64,000 nt of DNA. It comes from Minisyncoccia bacterium. GTDB taxonomy: Bacteria > Patescibacteriota > Minisyncoccia > Phycocordibacterales > Phycocordibacteraceae. The notes under the pieces were generated by a model, which was given only the letters and a program-made list of their open reading frames with translations, had not been told where the DNA came from and made no database searches. The stretch lies in contig JBBRPE010000001.1 in the NCBI GenBank assembly GCA_038228545.1, positions 46,924 through 110,923 of the forward strand, written 5' to 3'. Shown one piece after another: positions 8,894 to 63,527 of the stretch. Position 1 is the stretch's first letter. Every line of letters begins with the position of its first letter. Position numbers and translations under genes: made by a program.

Positions 8894-8972
8894 CCGGTCT
8901 TAGTCTCTGTCTATTTCTCCCTCCCCCTCTGATTCTGATTCTTTTAAGGTTTAAGTTTTCTTTTTCGTAATT

Positions 8973-9018
8973 CCACTATCCCCATCTTGTGACGGTCGTC
9001 ACAAGATGGGGATAGTGG
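8973..9018. repeat. long perfect palindrome, copy 2 (ccactatccccatcttgtgacg-gt-cgtcacaagatggggatagtgg)
   Basis: 22-nt arms. Lies immediately upstream of the regulator gene at 9036. Confidence 0.8.
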
Positions 9019-9035
9019 AGCGGTAAGATGACCGC

Positions 9036-9620
9036 ATGGGAAAGCTCGAAGCACAGGCCAAGCACGAACGGCGTCTCGGAGAGTTCGAACGCGCCATACT
9101 CGGCGTTACTGCTGCAGCCGGAATAGTCGCTGTAGGCGTTATCGCACCAAAACTTCTTTCATTAGTTCGGTACATACCTCAAAGTAACTCAAAATTTCGC
9201 TATCGAACGAAATCAACACTCACCAAGCTTGCGACACGAGGACTAATTACTTTCAGTAGCGAAGACGGGAAACGATACGCACGTTTAACTGAAAAGGGTG
9301 AGAAGCACATGGAGTATGAGACGCAGAAGCTCGTACTTACGCAGAATGCACGCAAACGCTGGGATAAGCGATGGCGGATAGTTACATTTGATATCCCAGA
9401 AGCTCGCAGACGAACTCGCACCCAGCTCCGTTACACCATGCAGGAAGCAGGATTCTATCGACTTCAGAATAGTGTATGGGTACTTCCGTATGACTGCGAA
9501 GACTTGATTACCCTTCTTAAGGCGGACCTTAAGGTCGGCAAAGACGTTCTTTACATTATTGCGGAGCATATCGAACACGATGCCGAGCTCCGCTCTCACT
9601 TCAACCTCCCAGCTGCCTAG
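9036..9620 (+). CDS. membrane-anchored winged-helix regulator with C-terminal Cas2/VapD-like (PaaX_C-like) domain
   Basis: TM helix ILGVTAAAGIVAVGVIAP. wHTH LTKLATRGLITFSSEDGKRYARLTEKG. C-terminal WRIVTFDIPEARRRTRTQLRYTMQEAGFYRLQNSVWVLPY resembles the Cas2 core fold. No CRISPR array in the window. Confidence 0.5.
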   Translation: MGKLEAQAKHERRLGEFERAILGVTAAAGIVAVGVIAPKLLSLVRYIPQSNSKFRYRTKSTLTKLATRGLITFSSEDGKRYARLTEKGEKHMEYETQKLVLTQNARKRWDKRWRIVTFDIPEARRRTRTQLRYTMQEAGFYRLQNSVWVLPYDCEDLITLLKADLKVGKDVLYIIAEHIEHDAELRSHFNLPAA

Positions 9621-9639
9621 GCTTACTTGCCCGAAGGAC

Positions 9640-9683
9640 CACTATCATCATCTTGTGACGACCGTCACAAGATGATGATAGTG
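9640..9683. repeat. long perfect palindrome, copy 3 (cactatcatcatcttgtgacg-ac-cgtcacaagatgatgatagtg)
   Basis: 21-nt arms. Lies immediately downstream of the regulator gene. Confidence 0.8.
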
Positions 9684-9840
9684 CAGACGACGGTTGCTGG
9701 TGCTAATACTGATAGTGTCGTTATCTAACGGGTGTGTTTAATTTATTCTCAATATCCGCGACGTCCGTGTTATGGAGAATAACGGCTACTACAGGAACGT
9801 GGTAAGGTAGCTCGAACCTGAACCTTGAAAGGAGGCATGT

Positions 9841-11790: not shown

Positions 11791-11816
11791 GATTTCGTTT
11801 TCATGTCCTCACGACT

Positions 11817-11903
11817 TCAGATACTAGGCGCGAGGAGTTCGCGCGAGAAGACGTACTAGCAGTACGTTGACGAGCGAGAACGAACTCGCAACAACGTAGA
11901 TGG
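11817..11903 (+). repeat. 88-nt structured interspersed element, copy A
   Basis: tcagatactaggcgcgagg...agacgtactagcagtacg...ctcgcaacaacgtagatgg. See finding. Confidence 0.75.
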
Positions 11904-11917
11904 TGTCGTTTTACGAG

Positions 11918-20197: not shown

Positions 20198-20227
20198 ATT
20201 GAAATTAGTGACTGTGCTGAAAAAGTC

Positions 20228-20315
20228 TCAGATACGAGGCGTGGGAAAGCCGTCGAAGTAGACGTATGTGCTATACGGCGGATGAGACGGCTGGGACCCA
20301 TAACGAAGTAGATGG
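20228..20315 (+). repeat. 88-nt structured interspersed element, copy B
   Basis: tcagatacgaggcgtggg...agacgtatgtgctatacg...gggacccataacgaagtagatgg. Located between the ABC ATPase and permease genes. Confidence 0.75.
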
Positions 20316-20330
20316 ATTTTTTAAGCATAG

Positions 20331-23414: not shown

Positions 23415-24210
23415 TTACTAAGGCCAGGCCTTGGTATACTGCTCGCGTGTACCAAGGCCTGGCCTTAGTAATAACCCGTTGCTCGCATGGGAATGAGGAT
23501 AATCCAGTTCGGAGTAAATGAATGGTATCACTGCTACAGCCGTGGTGTGGATAAGCGCATGATTTTTCAAGAAGCCGCAGACTATCAGCGCTTCCAAATG
23601 CTTCTCTATGTCTGCAACAGTACTATTCCGATTCATCTAAGTGAGATAGCGAAACGTCCCCAAGGCCTGGCCTTGGGAGAGGTCATCAGCGAAATACGAG
23701 GTGAGCAGTTCGTGGATATTGGTGCCTATGCACTTATGCCGAATCACCATCATCTCTTGCTGCGTGAACGAGTCGAGGGAGGCACAACAGCTTTCATGCA
23801 GAAATTGGGTACAGCCTATACGATGTACTTCAACAAGAAGTATGAGCGCACCGGATCTCTCTTTTCCGGAAAGTTCAAGGCGAAGCATGTGGCCACAGAT
23901 GAATATTTCGCACGTATCGTGAATTATATTCATGGGAACCCCGCAGAACTACATGAGCCGGGATGGAAGAATGGATTGATACGAGACGAGAGGAGGCTTA
24001 AACAGTTTCTTTCTTCATATCGTTTCTCAAGTTTGCCTGACCATGATACTGAAGATGAAAGAGTGGAAGGTCATCTAATAAACAAGAACTCTGTTCTCGA
24101 ACTTATCGGATACACTCCAACATTTGAAACACTTATGGAAGATGCATATACGTTTCAACGCGACGTGGACTTCGATTGACCGTATACCAAGGCCTGGCCT
24201 TGGTATACGG
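23415..24210 (+). mobile_element. RAYT (REP-associated tyrosine transposase) gene flanked by REP-like palindromes
   Basis: A compound hairpin at 23415-23472 (two inverted copies of ttactaaggccaggccttggta), an internal ccaaggcctggccttgg at ~23660, and a perfect 31-nt palindrome ccgtataccaaggcctggccttggtatacgg at 24180-24210. Confidence 0.7.
23487..24179 (+). CDS. IS200/IS605-like HuH Y1 transposase of the RAYT subgroup
   Basis: HuH motif LMPNHHHLLL and the Tyr motif NYIHGNPAE. Confidence 0.8.
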   Translation: MGMRIIQFGVNEWYHCYSRGVDKRMIFQEAADYQRFQMLLYVCNSTIPIHLSEIAKRPQGLALGEVISEIRGEQFVDIGAYALMPNHHHLLLRERVEGGTTAFMQKLGTAYTMYFNKKYERTGSLFSGKFKAKHVATDEYFARIVNYIHGNPAELHEPGWKNGLIRDERRLKQFLSSYRFSSLPDHDTEDERVEGHLINKNSVLELIGYTPTFETLMEDAYTFQRDVDFD

Positions 24211-24241
24211 TCTTTGGTATACGTTGAATAGCTACGAGGAG

Positions 24242-25312
24242 TTAGTAGGCGTCGGAACGGGTCTGGGTGTCACCTCGGAAGACGCGATGTAGGTAGAAGT
24301 TATATACAAGGACTATCGGAAATAGGGGCCCGAGTCCAAAGAGCATAAACTCAAGTGTCTTTCTGCTCGACGCGGCGTCGTAAATAGTGAGCGAAGGCGG
24401 AATGATGTACGGAAAGACACCGACCAGCATACCGAGCATAGCGAGCACGAATATGCCCAGGCAGAGATTGTGAAGTGCAGGGCCCGTGCTTTTTTTAATG
24501 ACGAGAACAATCAGCCAGAGTGAGAGCACTCCCATGCATGCCGTTATGCCAAAAAGCAGATAATTGCTCGGGTACATGGTCCAACGCTCAAAGAAAAGAT
24601 AGCTCTTACTCGGAAGTAGGAGCGTCGCGCCAAGTAATGCGCCACCGGTCACAGCTCCTGCGATAAGAATACGCATGAAGGTGTTTGGTGACGCTTCTTT
24701 CCCTGCTTTCTTAATCAGATATGCGTACCCAACGAAGACGTAACTCATCAGCACACCAATAGTAATAAGGAATGTGAGTGGCGTAATGAAATCGAATGCA
24801 GTACCGGAAAATTCCCCAGTGGTAACGGAAATACCCGAGAGCAGTCCGCCGACAGCGAGCCCCTGCCCCACACCAGCCAAGAGCGAACCGAATCCAAATA
24901 AGCGACTCCACAACTTCTTGTTCGTGCCGACAGCATGGAATTCAAATGACACTGCTCGCAGAATAAGTCCGAAGAGCATCGTCATGACCGGAATATAAAG
25001 TGCAGAAAGAATAATCCCGTACGCAGTCGGGAATGCGCCAAAAAGCATACCGCCTGCTATCACGAGCCAGGTTTCGTTTGCGTCCCATATCGGACCGAGC
25101 GTGTGCATCATCGCCGCACGTTGCTCTTCTTTCTGCGGAAGTAAGGAAAGTATGCCGAGACCGAGGTCCGCACCATCAAGCAAGATGTAGAGTGCAACCG
25201 CAAGACCTATTGCGCCGAACCACGCGAGTGCAAGCATCGGATCGGTAAGGTACTGCATCATACGCTTGGAAGTGTGCTGGTAAGGTCGGGACCTTTCTTC
25301 ACTATTTTCCAC
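24242..25312 (-). CDS. cydB: cytochrome bd ubiquinol oxidase subunit II
   Basis: CydB-like ~9 TM protein immediately downstream of cydA. Confidence 0.85.
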   Translation of the reverse strand: MENSEERSRPYQHTSKRMMQYLTDPMLALAWFGAIGLAVALYILLDGADLGLGILSLLPQKEEQRAAMMHTLGPIWDANETWLVIAGGMLFGAFPTAYGIILSALYIPVMTMLFGLILRAVSFEFHAVGTNKKLWSRLFGFGSLLAGVGQGLAVGGLLSGISVTTGEFSGTAFDFITPLTFLITIGVLMSYVFVGYAYLIKKAGKEASPNTFMRILIAGAVTGGALLGATLLLPSKSYLFFERWTMYPSNYLLFGITACMGVLSLWLIVLVIKKSTGPALHNLCLGIFVLAMLGMLVGVFPYIIPPSLTIYDAASSRKTLEFMLFGLGPLFPIVLVYNFYLHRVFRGDTQTRSDAY

Positions 25313-26661
25313 GTGAAGTAAACGAAGAGGAAACCAAATACCAGATAGATGGACGTAAAGATGCCTGTCGTTATCGCGACCGCGCTCGCATTCAGTCCGC
25401 TCGAGAGGCCGTGCTCGGTACGCAGCAAGTGATACACCACCCAGGGCTGACGGCCGATTTCACGCACCATCCATCCAGCTTCGGTTGCGATGAATCCAAG
25501 CGGTGTACCAAAGATAAAAAGCCACCAGAACAGCTTGTCTCCTCCCTGACTGGCGCGGAGCGGCACACCCGGCAGTGCTTCACCTGTTTTTAAGTAGCCA
25601 CGCTTCCAGTACCACACACCAAGAATCATAAGAAGGAACATGCAAACTCCGCACGCAACCATGATACGGAAGGAGTAGAAGACGAGAACGTCGTCGATAA
25701 GCGTCGGACGGTCGTTGGTAGGAAAATCATTCAGTCCCGGCACAGTACCGGTTGAAGAGTGTGTGGTAAGCAGAGAAAGAACGACCGGTAGTTTAATTTC
25801 GAACGCGTTCCCGTTATTTTGTGCGTTCGGCCAGGCGACGAGCGCCCAGTCGGCTCCCGTGCCCGGAAGGTTTGTATCCCAGTGCAGTTCTGTTGCCGCG
25901 AGCTTTGCCGGCTGATACTTCGCAATCGTCGTGCCCGAGAGGTCGCCGAGCCCCATCTGGAGTGGGGTCACGATAATAGCGAGCGCAAGACAATACTTGA
26001 ATGTCGTAAGAAAGAATTCACGCGTAGATTCCGGAACCGTGCGACGCATAAGTACAAGAGCGCAGATGCCAAGCATCATGAAGAGTGTTGCCTCTATACA
26101 TGCGACCCACATATGCAGGAACGACACGAGGGTATCGGGATTAAAGATAGCGACGAGGTAATCGGTCACGACGAGCTTTCCGTTCTGAACTTCAACGCCT
26201 ATAGGCACTTGCATCCAGGAGTTTGCCGCCATAATCCAGAACGCTGAAAGCGTCGCGCCCACGAATATCATCGCGTTCGAGAAGAAGTGCATCCACTTAT
26301 TCACTTTATTCCAACCGAAGACAAAGATGCCGAGGAAGGCTGCTTCGAGTGCAAACGCGACCGTGGACTCGAATCCGAGAATATTACCGAAGAAGTCCCC
26401 TGCCGCCGTCGAGAATTTTGCCCAATTCGTGCCGAATTCAAATTCGAGTGGAAAGCCGGTGGCTGTCCCAATGGCGAACGTCAGTATGAAAATCTTGGTC
26501 CAGAACTTGAGCTGACGATAATACGTTTCTTTCTTGGTCTTGAGCCACATCGCTTCCATCGTGAGCATGTAGAGCGAAAGGCCAATAGACATAAGCGGCC
26601 ACAATATATGGAACGCGGCAGTATCGCCGAACTGTAAGCGAGAGATAGTAAGTACATCCAT
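25258..26661 (-). CDS. cydA: cytochrome bd ubiquinol oxidase subunit I
   Basis: CydA family; Q-loop region and heme ligands. Confidence 0.9.
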   Translation of the reverse strand: MDVLTISRLQFGDTAAFHILWPLMSIGLSLYMLTMEAMWLKTKKETYYRQLKFWTKIFILTFAIGTATGFPLEFEFGTNWAKFSTAAGDFFGNILGFESTVAFALEAAFLGIFVFGWNKVNKWMHFFSNAMIFVGATLSAFWIMAANSWMQVPIGVEVQNGKLVVTDYLVAIFNPDTLVSFLHMWVACIEATLFMMLGICALVLMRRTVPESTREFFLTTFKYCLALAIIVTPLQMGLGDLSGTTIAKYQPAKLAATELHWDTNLPGTGADWALVAWPNAQNNGNAFEIKLPVVLSLLTTHSSTGTVPGLNDFPTNDRPTLIDDVLVFYSFRIMVACGVCMFLLMILGVWYWKRGYLKTGEALPGVPLRASQGGDKLFWWLFIFGTPLGFIATEAGWMVREIGRQPWVVYHLLRTEHGLSSGLNASAVAITTGIFTSIYLVFGFLFVYFTWKIVKKGPDLTSTLPSV

Positions 26662-27855: not shown

Positions 27856-27874
27856 TCCCCAGCTCGGTAAAGAA

Positions 27875-27908
27875 AAAGACCCTCGCTTGCGAGGGTCTTT
27901 TTCTTTAC
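27875..27908. terminator. bidirectional intrinsic terminator
   Basis: aaagaccctcgc-ttg-cgagggtcttt followed by ttctttac. Confidence 0.6.
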
Positions 27909-27916
27909 CTGTTTGC

Positions 27917-29440: not shown

Positions 29441-29466
29441 CTCCTAAGAATATGATTACAAAACTT

Positions 29467-29554
29467 TCATGTGCGAGGCGCGGGAGAGCGAGGACTGGAG
29501 GCGTACTGCAGCGTACGATGAAAGTCATCGCTCCGACCCGCAACGAAGCAGGGG
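29467..29554 (+). repeat. 88-nt structured interspersed element, copy F
   Basis: tcatgtgcgaggcgcggg...aggcgtactgcagcgtacg...cccgcaacgaagcagggg. Confidence 0.7.
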
Positions 29555-29576
29555 AAGTTTTTAAGCCTATTCTTGT

Positions 29577-32447: not shown

Positions 32448-32473
32448 TTGTTTGAGAATGCGAATTAAAGGAT

Positions 32474-32561
32474 TCAGATGCGAGGCGTGGGCGAGTGGGC
32501 GAAGTAGACGTACTCATAGTACGGCGGATGAGGCCGCTGGGACCCACAACGACGCAGGTGG
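32474..32561 (+). repeat. 88-nt structured interspersed element, copy C
   Basis: tcagatgcgaggcgtggg...agacgtactcatagtacg...gggacccacaacgacgcaggtgg. Confidence 0.75.
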
Positions 32562-32578
32562 AACTTTACTACGTATTC

Positions 32579-46550: not shown

Positions 46551-47399
46551 CTAACGAATCAAAGAATCAATATCAATATGGAGCTGGATAACCCCGCCAT
46601 CTTTTATGGTTATGGTCGTCGGTACTCCTTGTGCTCTCCCAATACTTCCATCGGTAACTGCCATACGCACATAGTAGGTACCTGCCGGAAGTGAGGCAGA
46701 GAAGGTGCCGTCAGCACCGGGAGTGAGCGTGGTCACAAGCGTAGTGCGATTTGCCTGATATATAGCAACTTTACGAGCCGCGAACATAGCCGGTGTCGGT
46801 TTGCAGGGATTAGTCGCATTTTCCACAGGACATGCAGGAGCTATAGTCATGGTCCCTTGGAGCGAACCCATCGCCTCACCCATACCGGGTGCCACCGAGA
46901 AGGTGAAGCGGTAGTCAGCAGCAGTAATGGTCGTTTTTGAATTCTTTGCAGGCGTAACACTCATGAGTGTTACGTGCTTAGAGCCGAAGGATACCGGACT
47001 ACCCATAACGAAGGTCTGCGTACGTACTCCACCATCGCCTTCTATCTTTGCAGTAATAGAGACCGTACCTGCCTGGATACACTGAACGTCCGTCGGACAA
47101 CGGCTGTCGGAAACTACGGAAAGCGGAGTAATGTGAACGCCGTTCGAAAGAATACGCTGGTTGAGCGATGCTGTGGTCGATTCTGTTTCAGGAGGATTCG
47201 GTACCGTAGTGGTTGCCGAAGGTACGTTCGTGACAGGCGCTGGCTGTTCAACGACCGGTGCAGATACGACGTTTGGATGCATAACCGTCCATAGCCCCCA
47301 TCCGGCAATAACAATAACGACGAGTCCCAAGAGGCCTAAAAGCGTGTTGCGAGTATTCATAGTACTAGTATAGACGGACAAGACAGCCCTTTCTGACAA
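46551..47399 (-). CDS. secreted/membrane-anchored hypothetical protein with beta-sandwich (carboxypeptidase-regulatory-like) region
   Basis: N-terminal TM/signal LLGLLGLVVIVIAGWGLW. Thr/Val-rich. Confidence 0.5.
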   Translation of the reverse strand: MSERAVLSVYTSTMNTRNTLLGLLGLVVIVIAGWGLWTVMHPNVVSAPVVEQPAPVTNVPSATTTVPNPPETESTTASLNQRILSNGVHITPLSVVSDSRCPTDVQCIQAGTVSITAKIEGDGGVRTQTFVMGSPVSFGSKHVTLMSVTPAKNSKTTITAADYRFTFSVAPGMGEAMGSLQGTMTIAPACPVENATNPCKPTPAMFAARKVAIYQANRTTLVTTLTPGADGTFSASLPAGTYYVRMAVTDGSIGRAQGVPTTITIKDGGVIQLHIDIDSLIR

Positions 47400-50205: not shown

Positions 50206-50232
50206 TTTCAGCACTAAGCCCGGAAAAGTGCC

Positions 50233-50323
50233 TTAGATACGAGGCGCGGGAAGAGCGGGGCCTGAGGCGTATATGTGATACGACGAACGGGCCCGCGAGG
50301 GACCCGTAACGACGTAGATGAGG
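50233..50323 (+). repeat. 88-nt structured interspersed element, copy D
   Basis: ttagatacgaggcgcggg...aggcgtatatgtgatacg...gggacccgtaacgacgtagatgagg. Confidence 0.7.
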
Positions 50324-50340
50324 TGCTTTTGCAGAAAAAA

Positions 50341-63381: not shown

Positions 63382-63418
63382 ACGTAAGATTCTAACGTAT
63401 CGAGTGCGAAAGAGATGC

Positions 63419-63507
63419 CTGAGATGCGAGGCGCGACGAGAGAATTTCTGCAGACGTACTAGCAGTACGGCGGAAGAAATGCTCGATGCCGCAACGAAGC
63501 AGATTGG
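63419..63507 (+). repeat. 88-nt structured interspersed element, copy E
   Basis: tgagatgcgaggcgcgacg...agacgtactagcagtacg...gccgcaacgaagcagattgg. Confidence 0.7.
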
Positions 63508-63527
63508 GCGTATTCTTTCGTGCTCGC

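Follow-up and report, generated by a model that had tools for sequence, protein, structure and literature searches.

The DNA analysed here, hereafter called the window, is the whole 64-kb stretch from position 46,924 to 110,923 of contig JBBRPE010000001.1, from the genome of an ultra-small bacterium of the CPR (Patescibacteria, Paceibacteria-like). It contains a locus, composed of an open reading frame (ORF) from 23487 to 24179 and its palindromes, that is probably a resident, vertically inherited system of a REP-associated tyrosine transposase (RAYT; REP, repetitive extragenic palindrome), also called a REPtron. Such a system would consist of the gene for a Y1 HuH single-stranded DNA (ssDNA) endonuclease/ligase and of four copies of its cognate hairpin-forming palindrome. 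This reading draws on the anatomy of the locus, the fold class of the protein, the association of gene and palindromes in related loci, the concerted evolution of the palindrome copies and their dispersal in relatives. The palindrome, ..CCAAGGCC-N-GGCCTTGG.. (also written TACYAAGGCCNGGCCTTRGTA), is present as an inverted pair upstream of the gene (copies U1 and U2), once in frame within the ORF (copy I) and once at the stop codon (copy D; Table 1).

The first upstream copy begins 3 nucleotides past the stop codon of the preceding FAD-oxidase gene. The two upstream arms are 25 nucleotides long each, are 96% complementary to one another and have 7 nucleotides between them; each arm is itself palindromic around AAGGCC-N-GGCCTT. 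Together, they form an inverted doublet resembling a REPIN (REP doublet forming hairpins), which can be folded as a single 25-base pair hairpin spanning 23415–23471, with an ssDNA folding energy of -26.8 kcal/mol and a z-score of -10. The internal copy codes for P58-Q-G-L-A-L-G64, located in the loop between helix 30–42 and strand 76–83, N-terminal of the HuH motif. The downstream copy starts within the TGA stop codon, is placed between the convergent RAYT and cydB genes, and is followed by a short direct repeat of its outer arm. In ssDNA folding, the three palindrome sites are more stable than shuffled sequences, with z-scores from -4 to -10. Scanning the window for CCAAGGCCNGGCCTTGG with at most two mismatches gives 4 matches, where 0.00 are expected from shuffles, and the looser 13-nucleotide core AAGGCCNGGCCTT with at most one mismatch gives the same 4 matches, against 0.08 expected. 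As all four matches are at one locus, the palindrome is not dispersed within the 64 kb. In a preliminary description of this DNA, a 230-residue protein with the motifs PNHHHLL and YIHGNPAE, inverted palindrome copies upstream of its gene and a further copy encoding PQGLALG at around position 23660 had been noted, and all of these are found; the downstream palindrome is perfect, as had been described, but is 35 rather than 31 nucleotides long.

Table 1. Coordinates of the palindromes, the gene and other repeated elements in the window.
Feature	Position	Strand	Description
Upstream REP copy U1	23415–23439	none	TTACTAAGGCCAGGCCTTGGTATAC; centre base A; inverted relative to U2
Upstream REP copy U2	23447–23471	none	GTGTACCAAGGCCTGGCCTTAGTAA; centre base T
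RAYT-type Y1 HuH gene	23487–24179	+	230 residues; Y1_Tnp profile, motifs and model
Internal in-frame REP copy I	23659–23677	none	CCCAAGGCCTGGCCTTGGG; 9-base pair stem
Downstream REP copy D	24178–24212	none	perfect 35-nucleotide palindrome GACCGTATACCAAGGCCTGGCCTTGGTATACGGTC; 17-base pair stem
Half-site direct repeat	24214–24223	none	TTGGTATACG; repeats the outer 3' arm of D (24200–24209)
Hairpin elements of ~100 nucleotides (n = 6)	11811–11910, 20222–20322, 29461–29562, 32468–32568, 50227–50328, 63414–63512	all same orientation	
Second palindrome family, ~45 nucleotides	2953–2993, 8972–9019, 9639–9684		CACTATCATCATCTTGTGACG..CGTCACAAGATGATGATAGTG; unrelated to the REP

The protein contains the HuH motif PNHHHLL (with His87 and His89), the catalytic tyrosine motif Y147-I-H-G-N-P (with Asn151) and a tail motif, Y178-R-F-S181-S182. 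It passes the Pfam profile Y1_Tnp (PF01797) with 36.9 bits, the cut-off being 23. In an alignment of 20 homologs, residues His87, His89, Tyr147, His149 and Asn151 are invariant, as are an N-terminal strand of sequence W-x-H-C-x-x-R-G-x-D-x-R and the tail Y-x-x-S-S. The tyrosine signature is that of class 2 (TnpA-REP), Y-x-x-x-N-P, and not the Y-x-x-x-Q of IS200. A search of solved structures with the single sequence gave no match. The AlphaFold model of the protein (predicted local distance difference test score, pLDDT, 85) has one significant match in the PDB when compared using Foldseek: entry 4ER8, the E. coli REP-associated tyrosine transposase (TnpA-REP) bound to a REP hairpin (E-value 7e-5, template modelling (TM) score of 0.63 on the target). 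In the fold ranking, it is followed by the TnpA structures of IS608, IS200 and ISDra2. At the carboxy-terminal end, around 65 additional residues are present, which are predicted to be helical; no Pfam helix-turn-helix (HTH) domain was detected in the protein. The public gene call has 206 residues and starts from Met25, dropping the 24 N-terminal residues (window 23487–23558); the annotated start is probably wrong, because it omits W13-x-H15-C16-x-x-R19-G20 of the family-invariant strand.

The protein belongs to a large family. A word-based search returned 873 close homologs of about 230 residues, with roughly 50–60% identity, and those that are named are essentially all from Paceibacterota, Kaiserbacteria or Patescibacteria metagenome-assembled genomes (MAGs). 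An exhaustive profile search gave 996 clusters at the 50% identity level (E ≤ 1e-30). On plasmids of cultured bacteria only distant homologs were found, at most ~32% identical and of partial length. A full-text literature search returned no paper on RAYT/REP systems in Patescibacteria genomes; the sole paper containing both terms mentions a RAYT gene in a Nanobdellota archaeon.

Ninety loci were compared: the window, two from a DNA-pattern scan, 80 metagenome contigs and seven retrieved by exact protein. In 68 of them, a perfect palindrome whose stem measures 8 base pairs or more is located within ~130 nucleotides upstream of the gene, or at or after its stop codon, and many of the 22 loci without a flanking palindrome are truncated contigs. 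The flanking palindromes are specific to each locus (TACCAAGGCC.., ATGTCAAGGTT.., CCGTGAAGGTT.. and GGGAAGCG.. are examples), with an AGG...CCT inner stem in 55 of the 68 loci; among control palindromes from other parts of these loci, 12 of 129 have it. As in classical REPtrons, the upstream copies frequently have the opposite orientation to the downstream ones, and most palindromes of the family have no T-run. Half-site tandem duplications, consisting of one arm and a few flanking bases, adjoin 16 of the 153 palindromes; they break exactly at the palindrome centre in loci L011 (5500–5530), L093, L068 and L053, and further ones are present beside palindromes of L099 and L118. Apex nicking of the hairpin, or slippage, could have left these duplications behind.

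Palindromes around a small gene could be ordinary terminators or operators, with a similarity to one another that has nothing to do with enzyme substrates. The downstream palindrome of our locus is indeed terminator-like and lies between convergent genes, the upstream doublet comes directly after the stop codon of the preceding gene, and other, unrelated palindromes in the window are also intergenic. This explanation is nonetheless extremely improbable, given that in dozens of genomes one locus-specific sequence is found on both sides of the gene and within it, with all copies changing jointly, that the AGG...CCT inner stem is family-wide, that most of the palindromes lack the T-run and that terminators have no reason to be copied into coding sequence. 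A secondary role as a terminator is possible for the downstream copy.

The palindrome is dispersed in genomes related to that of the window. The Paceibacterota MAG WC_15 contains 12 exact copies of the window's palindrome on seven contigs. One of these contigs, L011, carries a RAYT gene 54% identical to that of the window and with the same architecture: two upstream copies separated by 34 nucleotides, a downstream copy and an internal one, which encodes H-Q-G-P-A-L-V. The other eight copies are on six contigs without a RAYT gene, where they are mostly extragenic and typically located just beyond gene ends. In a Saccharibacteria MAG, a RAYT gene of 42% identity is flanked by the same palindrome, and two solo copies are present in addition. 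At the end of this gene (contig L037, 5315–5360, minus strand), the ORF runs into the downstream palindrome and ends in ...Y-Q-G-P-A-L-V-stop, a terminal peptide and frame equal to those of the internal copies in Paceibacteria; the gene itself has no internal copy and its loop is seven residues shorter. Across the family, distant flanks contain nine extra copies in 221 kb, or about one per 25 kb. The palindromes of the family behave as REPs at low copy number, the window's own genome being covered for 64 kb. Palindromes confined to a single locus would, according to the preliminary description, have spoken against a RAYT/REP system; they are confined to this locus within the 64 kb, but dispersed in the related genome WC_15.

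Exact 11-mers shared between the interior of the ORF and its flanks cluster at nucleotides ~120–199 of the ORF, which correspond to the loop containing P-Q-G-L-A-L-G. The internal palindrome differs from locus to locus, and is always equal to the flanking palindrome of the locus in which it resides. When the REP core of a locus's own flanks is sought inside the ORF, the best match is bimodal: at least 16 of 17 positions in 16 loci and at most 13 of 17 in the remainder, the latter group matching no better than codon-shuffled sequences. The longest exact word shared by the ORF interior and its own flanks measures at least 14 nucleotides (up to 29) in 25 of the 90 loci, while words of this length are found in 3 of 900 pairs in the cross-locus control, with a maximum of 15. 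Twenty of these 25 internal copies are located at ORF nucleotides 120–199, in the same loop as in the window and N-terminal of the HuH motif; the other five are at nucleotides 428–480, just past the tyrosine motif, and four of the five come from one clade. Of the 11 members of the window's clade, eight have retained the internal copy at the same codon positions, and they do not differ in length from the other three. Overall, loops that contain the copy show no consistent increase in length (37–44 residues, against 33–47 in those without it), but the loop is clearly lengthened in L079 and L096. No fixed rule for the orientation of the centre base was found among upstream, internal and downstream copies; internal and downstream copies may share an orientation with the upstream copy inverted, all may be the same, or the internal copy may be opposite to both others.

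Palindromes were also predicted from the encoded peptides alone and then found in L127 (Q-G-P-T-L), L129 (Q-G-R-A-L) and L131 (Q-G-K-T-L). Loci L130 and L133 contain matching internal copies as well, and in L132 an internal palindrome was neither predicted nor found. The palindrome predicted from G-G-P-S-L (GGAGGGCCCTCC) was wrong: in L128 the copy is half-decayed and belongs to another REP. Decayed intermediates are rare, this half copy being the one case. A peptide test of wider scope is weak: a palindrome-compatible pentapeptide is present at the site in 75 of 121 sequences, but one control window reaches 90 of 121.

Internal and flanking copies change together. Locus L071 has CGAAGG..CCTTCG where L083 has CAAAGG..CCTTTG, and the centre is TTCAA in L076 and TCGAA in L093, with each change shared by the internal copy and the flanks; the pair L060 and L074 follows the same pattern. 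Bases that do not pair are copied too, such as the loop ACTCC of L074, and the imperfect palindrome of L130 is identical inside and downstream of the gene, as part of a 28-nucleotide exact word. Because non-pairing bases and imperfections are shared, hairpin stability alone does not explain the match.

A further comparison is with L129, a syntenic ortholog in which the upstream 552-residue FAD oxidase is 63.4% and the RAYT 60.5% identical to the window's. Its upstream, internal and downstream copies all have the sequence ATCAAGGCC-N-GGCCTTGAT, compared with ACCAAGGCC-N-GGCCTTGGT in the window; the three copies have switched together, from ACCAAGG to ATCAAGG. The gene and its three hairpin positions thus date back to a deep common ancestor, and the copies have changed jointly. 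When L129 (10793–12349) is compared with positions 24242–26661 of the window (the cydB, cydA operon on the minus strand), synteny is kept upstream and breaks exactly at the downstream palindrome of the RAYT gene, which places the REPtron at a rearrangement boundary.

The window's gene is preceded by the FAD-linked oxidase and followed by convergent genes for cytochrome bd subunits II and I. TnpB is absent from the neighbouring genes, and a second copy of the RAYT gene was not found in the window using tblastn. This arrangement bears on the idea that the locus is an autonomous insertion sequence (IS) of the IS200 type, in which the palindromes would be the left- and right-end hairpins and the whole unit of ~0.8 kb would move by peel-and-paste. 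The tight bracketing of the gene by palindromes, the small number of solo copies, the genomic context, which differs among most homolog loci, and the name of the Pfam family ('Transposase IS200 like') are in its favour. Yet the catalytic motif is of the class 2 and not of the IS200 type, the closest fold is that of the RAYT in 4ER8, tnpB is missing and most homolog clusters are found on a single contig. Furthermore, the gene keeps its orthologous position beside the same FAD oxidase although the RAYT proteins are only 60% identical, the palindrome is present without the gene on six WC_15 contigs, and the upstream and downstream copies are often mutually inverted, while the ends of IS200/IS605 elements act on one strand. 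We therefore regard an autonomous IS as very unlikely. The preliminary description had assigned the protein to the RAYT type, to be abandoned if it proved an IS200 TnpA with TnpB next to it; the Y1_Tnp profile, the Y-x-x-x-N-P signature, the fold match to 4ER8, the flanking palindromes and the lack of a nearby TnpB all support that assignment.

The internal copy could be a neutral passenger: hairpins would insert near their own gene, those inserted in frame would survive in a permissive loop, and the match with the flanks would reflect recent insertion. In-frame REPs of tnpAREP genes of subclass 2.4 are ascribed to tolerant loops by Quentin et al. 2018. In line with this, the loops of L079 and L096 are lengthened around the copy, most loci have no internal copy, its distribution over the tree is patchy, and in our model it occupies a surface loop of lower confidence. 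However, the same codons are used in 8 of the 11 members of the window's clade with no change in length, decayed intermediates are rare, and the copy has been retained, with a sequence that tracks the flanks, at a syntenic locus where the proteins are ~60% identical. Persistence and tracking of the flanks call for repeated exact replacement or for selection, rather than one recent insertion. A neutral passenger is a serious alternative, if on balance an improbable one, but to fit the synteny it needs a homogenising process added. About equally doubtful is the proposal that the in-frame palindrome is a functional cis-element, a site inside its own gene that the RAYT would recognise for loading, feedback control or self-limiting cleavage. 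If this were true, selection would keep coding sequence, flanking hairpins and protein specificity changing together across Patescibacteria, and the family would constitute a natural library of hundreds of matched pairs of HuH enzyme and hairpin, with a record of specificity switches.

For the resident RAYT/REP system that we favour, a mode of action can be proposed by homology with TnpA-REP and IS608 TnpA. The palindromes would fold in single-stranded DNA, as exposed at the replication fork or perhaps in the transcription bubble. The protein would bind the hairpins via the family-conserved AGG...CCT inner stem and the locus-specific outer bases, nick the strand through Tyr147, with a metal bound by His87 and His89, and then rejoin it. 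New extragenic copies would be seeded occasionally, so that each genome contains no more than a few to tens of them. As for the internal copy, it resides in a surface loop tolerant of almost any peptide, is inherited at that position and has long been kept identical to the copies in the flanks. Its concerted change with the flanks requires either selection for recognition or repeated overwriting. In the first case, the internal copy would match the flanks because it must stay a substrate or binding site of the same protein, for instance as a loading or autoregulatory site that acts on the protein's own gene. In the second, it would be overwritten repeatedly from its neighbours, by REP-for-REP replacement carried out by the enzyme or by short-tract gene conversion or template switching, the hairpins being separated by less than 1 kb. 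Both cases are compatible with how seldom decayed intermediates are seen and with the sharing of bases that do not pair.

Several observations weigh against a RAYT/REP system. The NCBIfam equivalog profile for REP-associated tyrosine transposases (NF047646, REP_Tyr_transpos) gives 34.8 bits (E-value 1.3e-8), where the cut-off is 80 bits, and covers residues 62–152 only. Profile searches of solved RAYT and TnpA proteins are only marginal (E-values of 0.06–0.45), and the structural alignment with 4ER8 has an identity of 13%. The palindromes are symmetric and do not have the GT[AG]G guide tetranucleotide of canonical REPs; the feet of the hairpins are GTAT/GTGT at the window's locus, and CAT, TTT and others in relatives. 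Mismatch-tolerant scans of the remaining ~63 kb of the window found no copy of the palindrome, and copy D also fits a weak pattern for intrinsic terminators. Finally, 65 of the 90 loci do not contain an internal copy, from which it follows that the internal copy is dispensable for protein activity.

Other repeats are present in the window. The six elements of ~100 nucleotides each form a long imperfect hairpin, with compensatory changes in 13 of the 27 predicted pairs and with the conserved internal motifs GAGGCG, AGACGTAC..GTACGGCGG and AACGAAG. They gave no match in Rfam and may represent either a structured RNA or another family of repeats. The preliminary description had asked whether these hairpins, there given as 88 nucleotides long, are related to the RAYT system as candidate ssDNA substrates and share a guide tetranucleotide. 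No evidence for their being substrates of this RAYT was found: they share neither sequence nor foot motif with the REP palindrome, and almost none of the related RAYT loci contains them. Two members of the second palindrome family, of ~45 nucleotides, bracket an ORF of 194 residues (9036–9620). A second or degenerate RAYT between these palindromes (8974/9640) was considered and rejected, as the ORF is PaaX_M/Cas2-like. At 27866–27909, a perfect inverted repeat of 21 + 21 nucleotides with a 2-nucleotide spacer (GGTAAAGAAAAAGACCCTCGC / GCGAGGGTCTTTTTCTTTACC), unrelated to the REP, looks like a bidirectional terminator.

RAYTs are regarded as domesticated transposases by which populations of hairpin repeats are kept up, and to our knowledge nearly all work on RAYT/REP systems concerns Proteobacteria and Cyanobacteria. 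The locus described here represents a large, Patescibacteria-wide subfamily of about 1000 clusters at 50% identity. The hosts have genomes that are among the smallest and poorest in repeats; their populations of repeats are very small, yet the gene has been kept along with its hairpins. Every locus is a matched pair of protein and hairpin, and the internal copy changes with the flanks at orthologous positions. This offers a comparative handle on how HuH enzymes read hairpin sequences, a question useful for the engineering of HuH tags and ssDNA tools, and on whether selection or copying by the enzyme maintains the uniformity of REPs. What makes the system interesting is chiefly how large the Patescibacteria family is, together with its inherited, co-evolving in-frame hairpin copy.

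Work by Bertels and Rainey from 2011 is said to be among the studies that established RAYTs, REPtrons and the co-evolution of RAYTs with REPs. These notions are also set out in two later studies (Bertels et al. 2017; Quentin et al. 2018). As RAYTs, REPtrons and in-frame REPs have already been described, the present family is an extension and not a new kind of system; it differs in its motifs, its helical tail, the untagged symmetric palindromes, the positions of the internal copies, the taxon and the position-stable co-variation.

The E. coli TnpA-REP/RAYT (YafM; 4ER8), a member of subclass 2.2, shares with our protein the Y1 HuH fold, of which it is the best structural match, the Y-x-x-x-N-P signature and the S-S tail motif. 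In both systems cognate hairpin palindromes bracket the gene, inverted doublets included, there is no TnpB, and no further copy of the gene is present (here, within the 64-kb window). The family described here differs in its 13% identity by structural alignment, its score below the equivalog cut-off and the ~65 extra C-terminal residues. Its palindromes are perfectly symmetric, without the GTAG foot, and number from a few to tens rather than hundreds.

Quentin et al. 2018 (PMC6006769) define class 2 TnpA-REP by Y-x-x-x-N-P and IS200 by Y-x-x-x-Q, name in-frame REPs in tnpAREP a 'unique feature' of subclass 2.4, also seen in some members of 2.8, and accept untagged atypical structures for subclasses 2.6 and 3. 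By their account, subclass 2.4 (Bertels group 4, from Cyanobacteria and Bacteroidetes) resembles our family in having frame-keeping REPs within the RAYT coding sequence, 'double-foot' (symmetric) REPs and a low genomic frequency of the flanking repeats. The REPs of subclass 2.4 are described as inserted between the HuH and tyrosine motifs and as carrying GT[AG]G, while in our family the main site is N-terminal of the HuH motif (residues 58–64 in the window), a second site is located just after the tyrosine, and there is no tag. The 2.4 proteins are given as 194 residues long with the motifs NH[IFV]H, WQ and YIxNNP, compared with ~230 residues and NHxH, FS and YIH(A/G)NP here. Position-stable, long-term co-variation with the flanks, observed here, is not mentioned for 2.4 in the sections of that paper considered here. 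Subclass 2.1 (TnpA-Y1/TIRYT, Bertels group 1) is closer in the protein as the same source presents it, with a median of 238 residues, NH[YF]H, F-Q and Y[IV]HLNP variants, and a tail in which an S-S motif precedes a helical C-terminal extension. It is reported there to have terminal inverted repeats instead of flanking REP-like hairpins, and HTH-like tails, whereas in our family hairpins are the rule. By length and motifs, the family appears nearest to subclass 2.1, a comparison made on the basis of that paper's descriptions.

The TnpA proteins of IS200, IS608 and ISDra2 have the same catalytic fold, a hairpin-recognising ssDNA chemistry that is predicted for our protein too, and subterminal hairpins that flank the gene. 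They differ by the Y-x-x-x-Q motif, by consisting of the ~150-residue core only, by being multicopy and often accompanied by tnpB, and by ends that act on one strand, none of which is seen here. The proteins encoded by gene A of phiX174 and repC of pT181 are HuH initiators with a nick site inside their own coding sequence. By analogy only, they resemble our family, in which the putative cognate site of a HuH enzyme is in frame within its own gene; theirs are phage and plasmid replication origins. Judged by its motifs and architecture, the family would work like a RAYT/REPtron and belongs to the class 2 TnpA-Y1 proteins, being neither an equivalog of the E. coli type nor a member of subclass 2.4, and it is probably an undescribed subclass.

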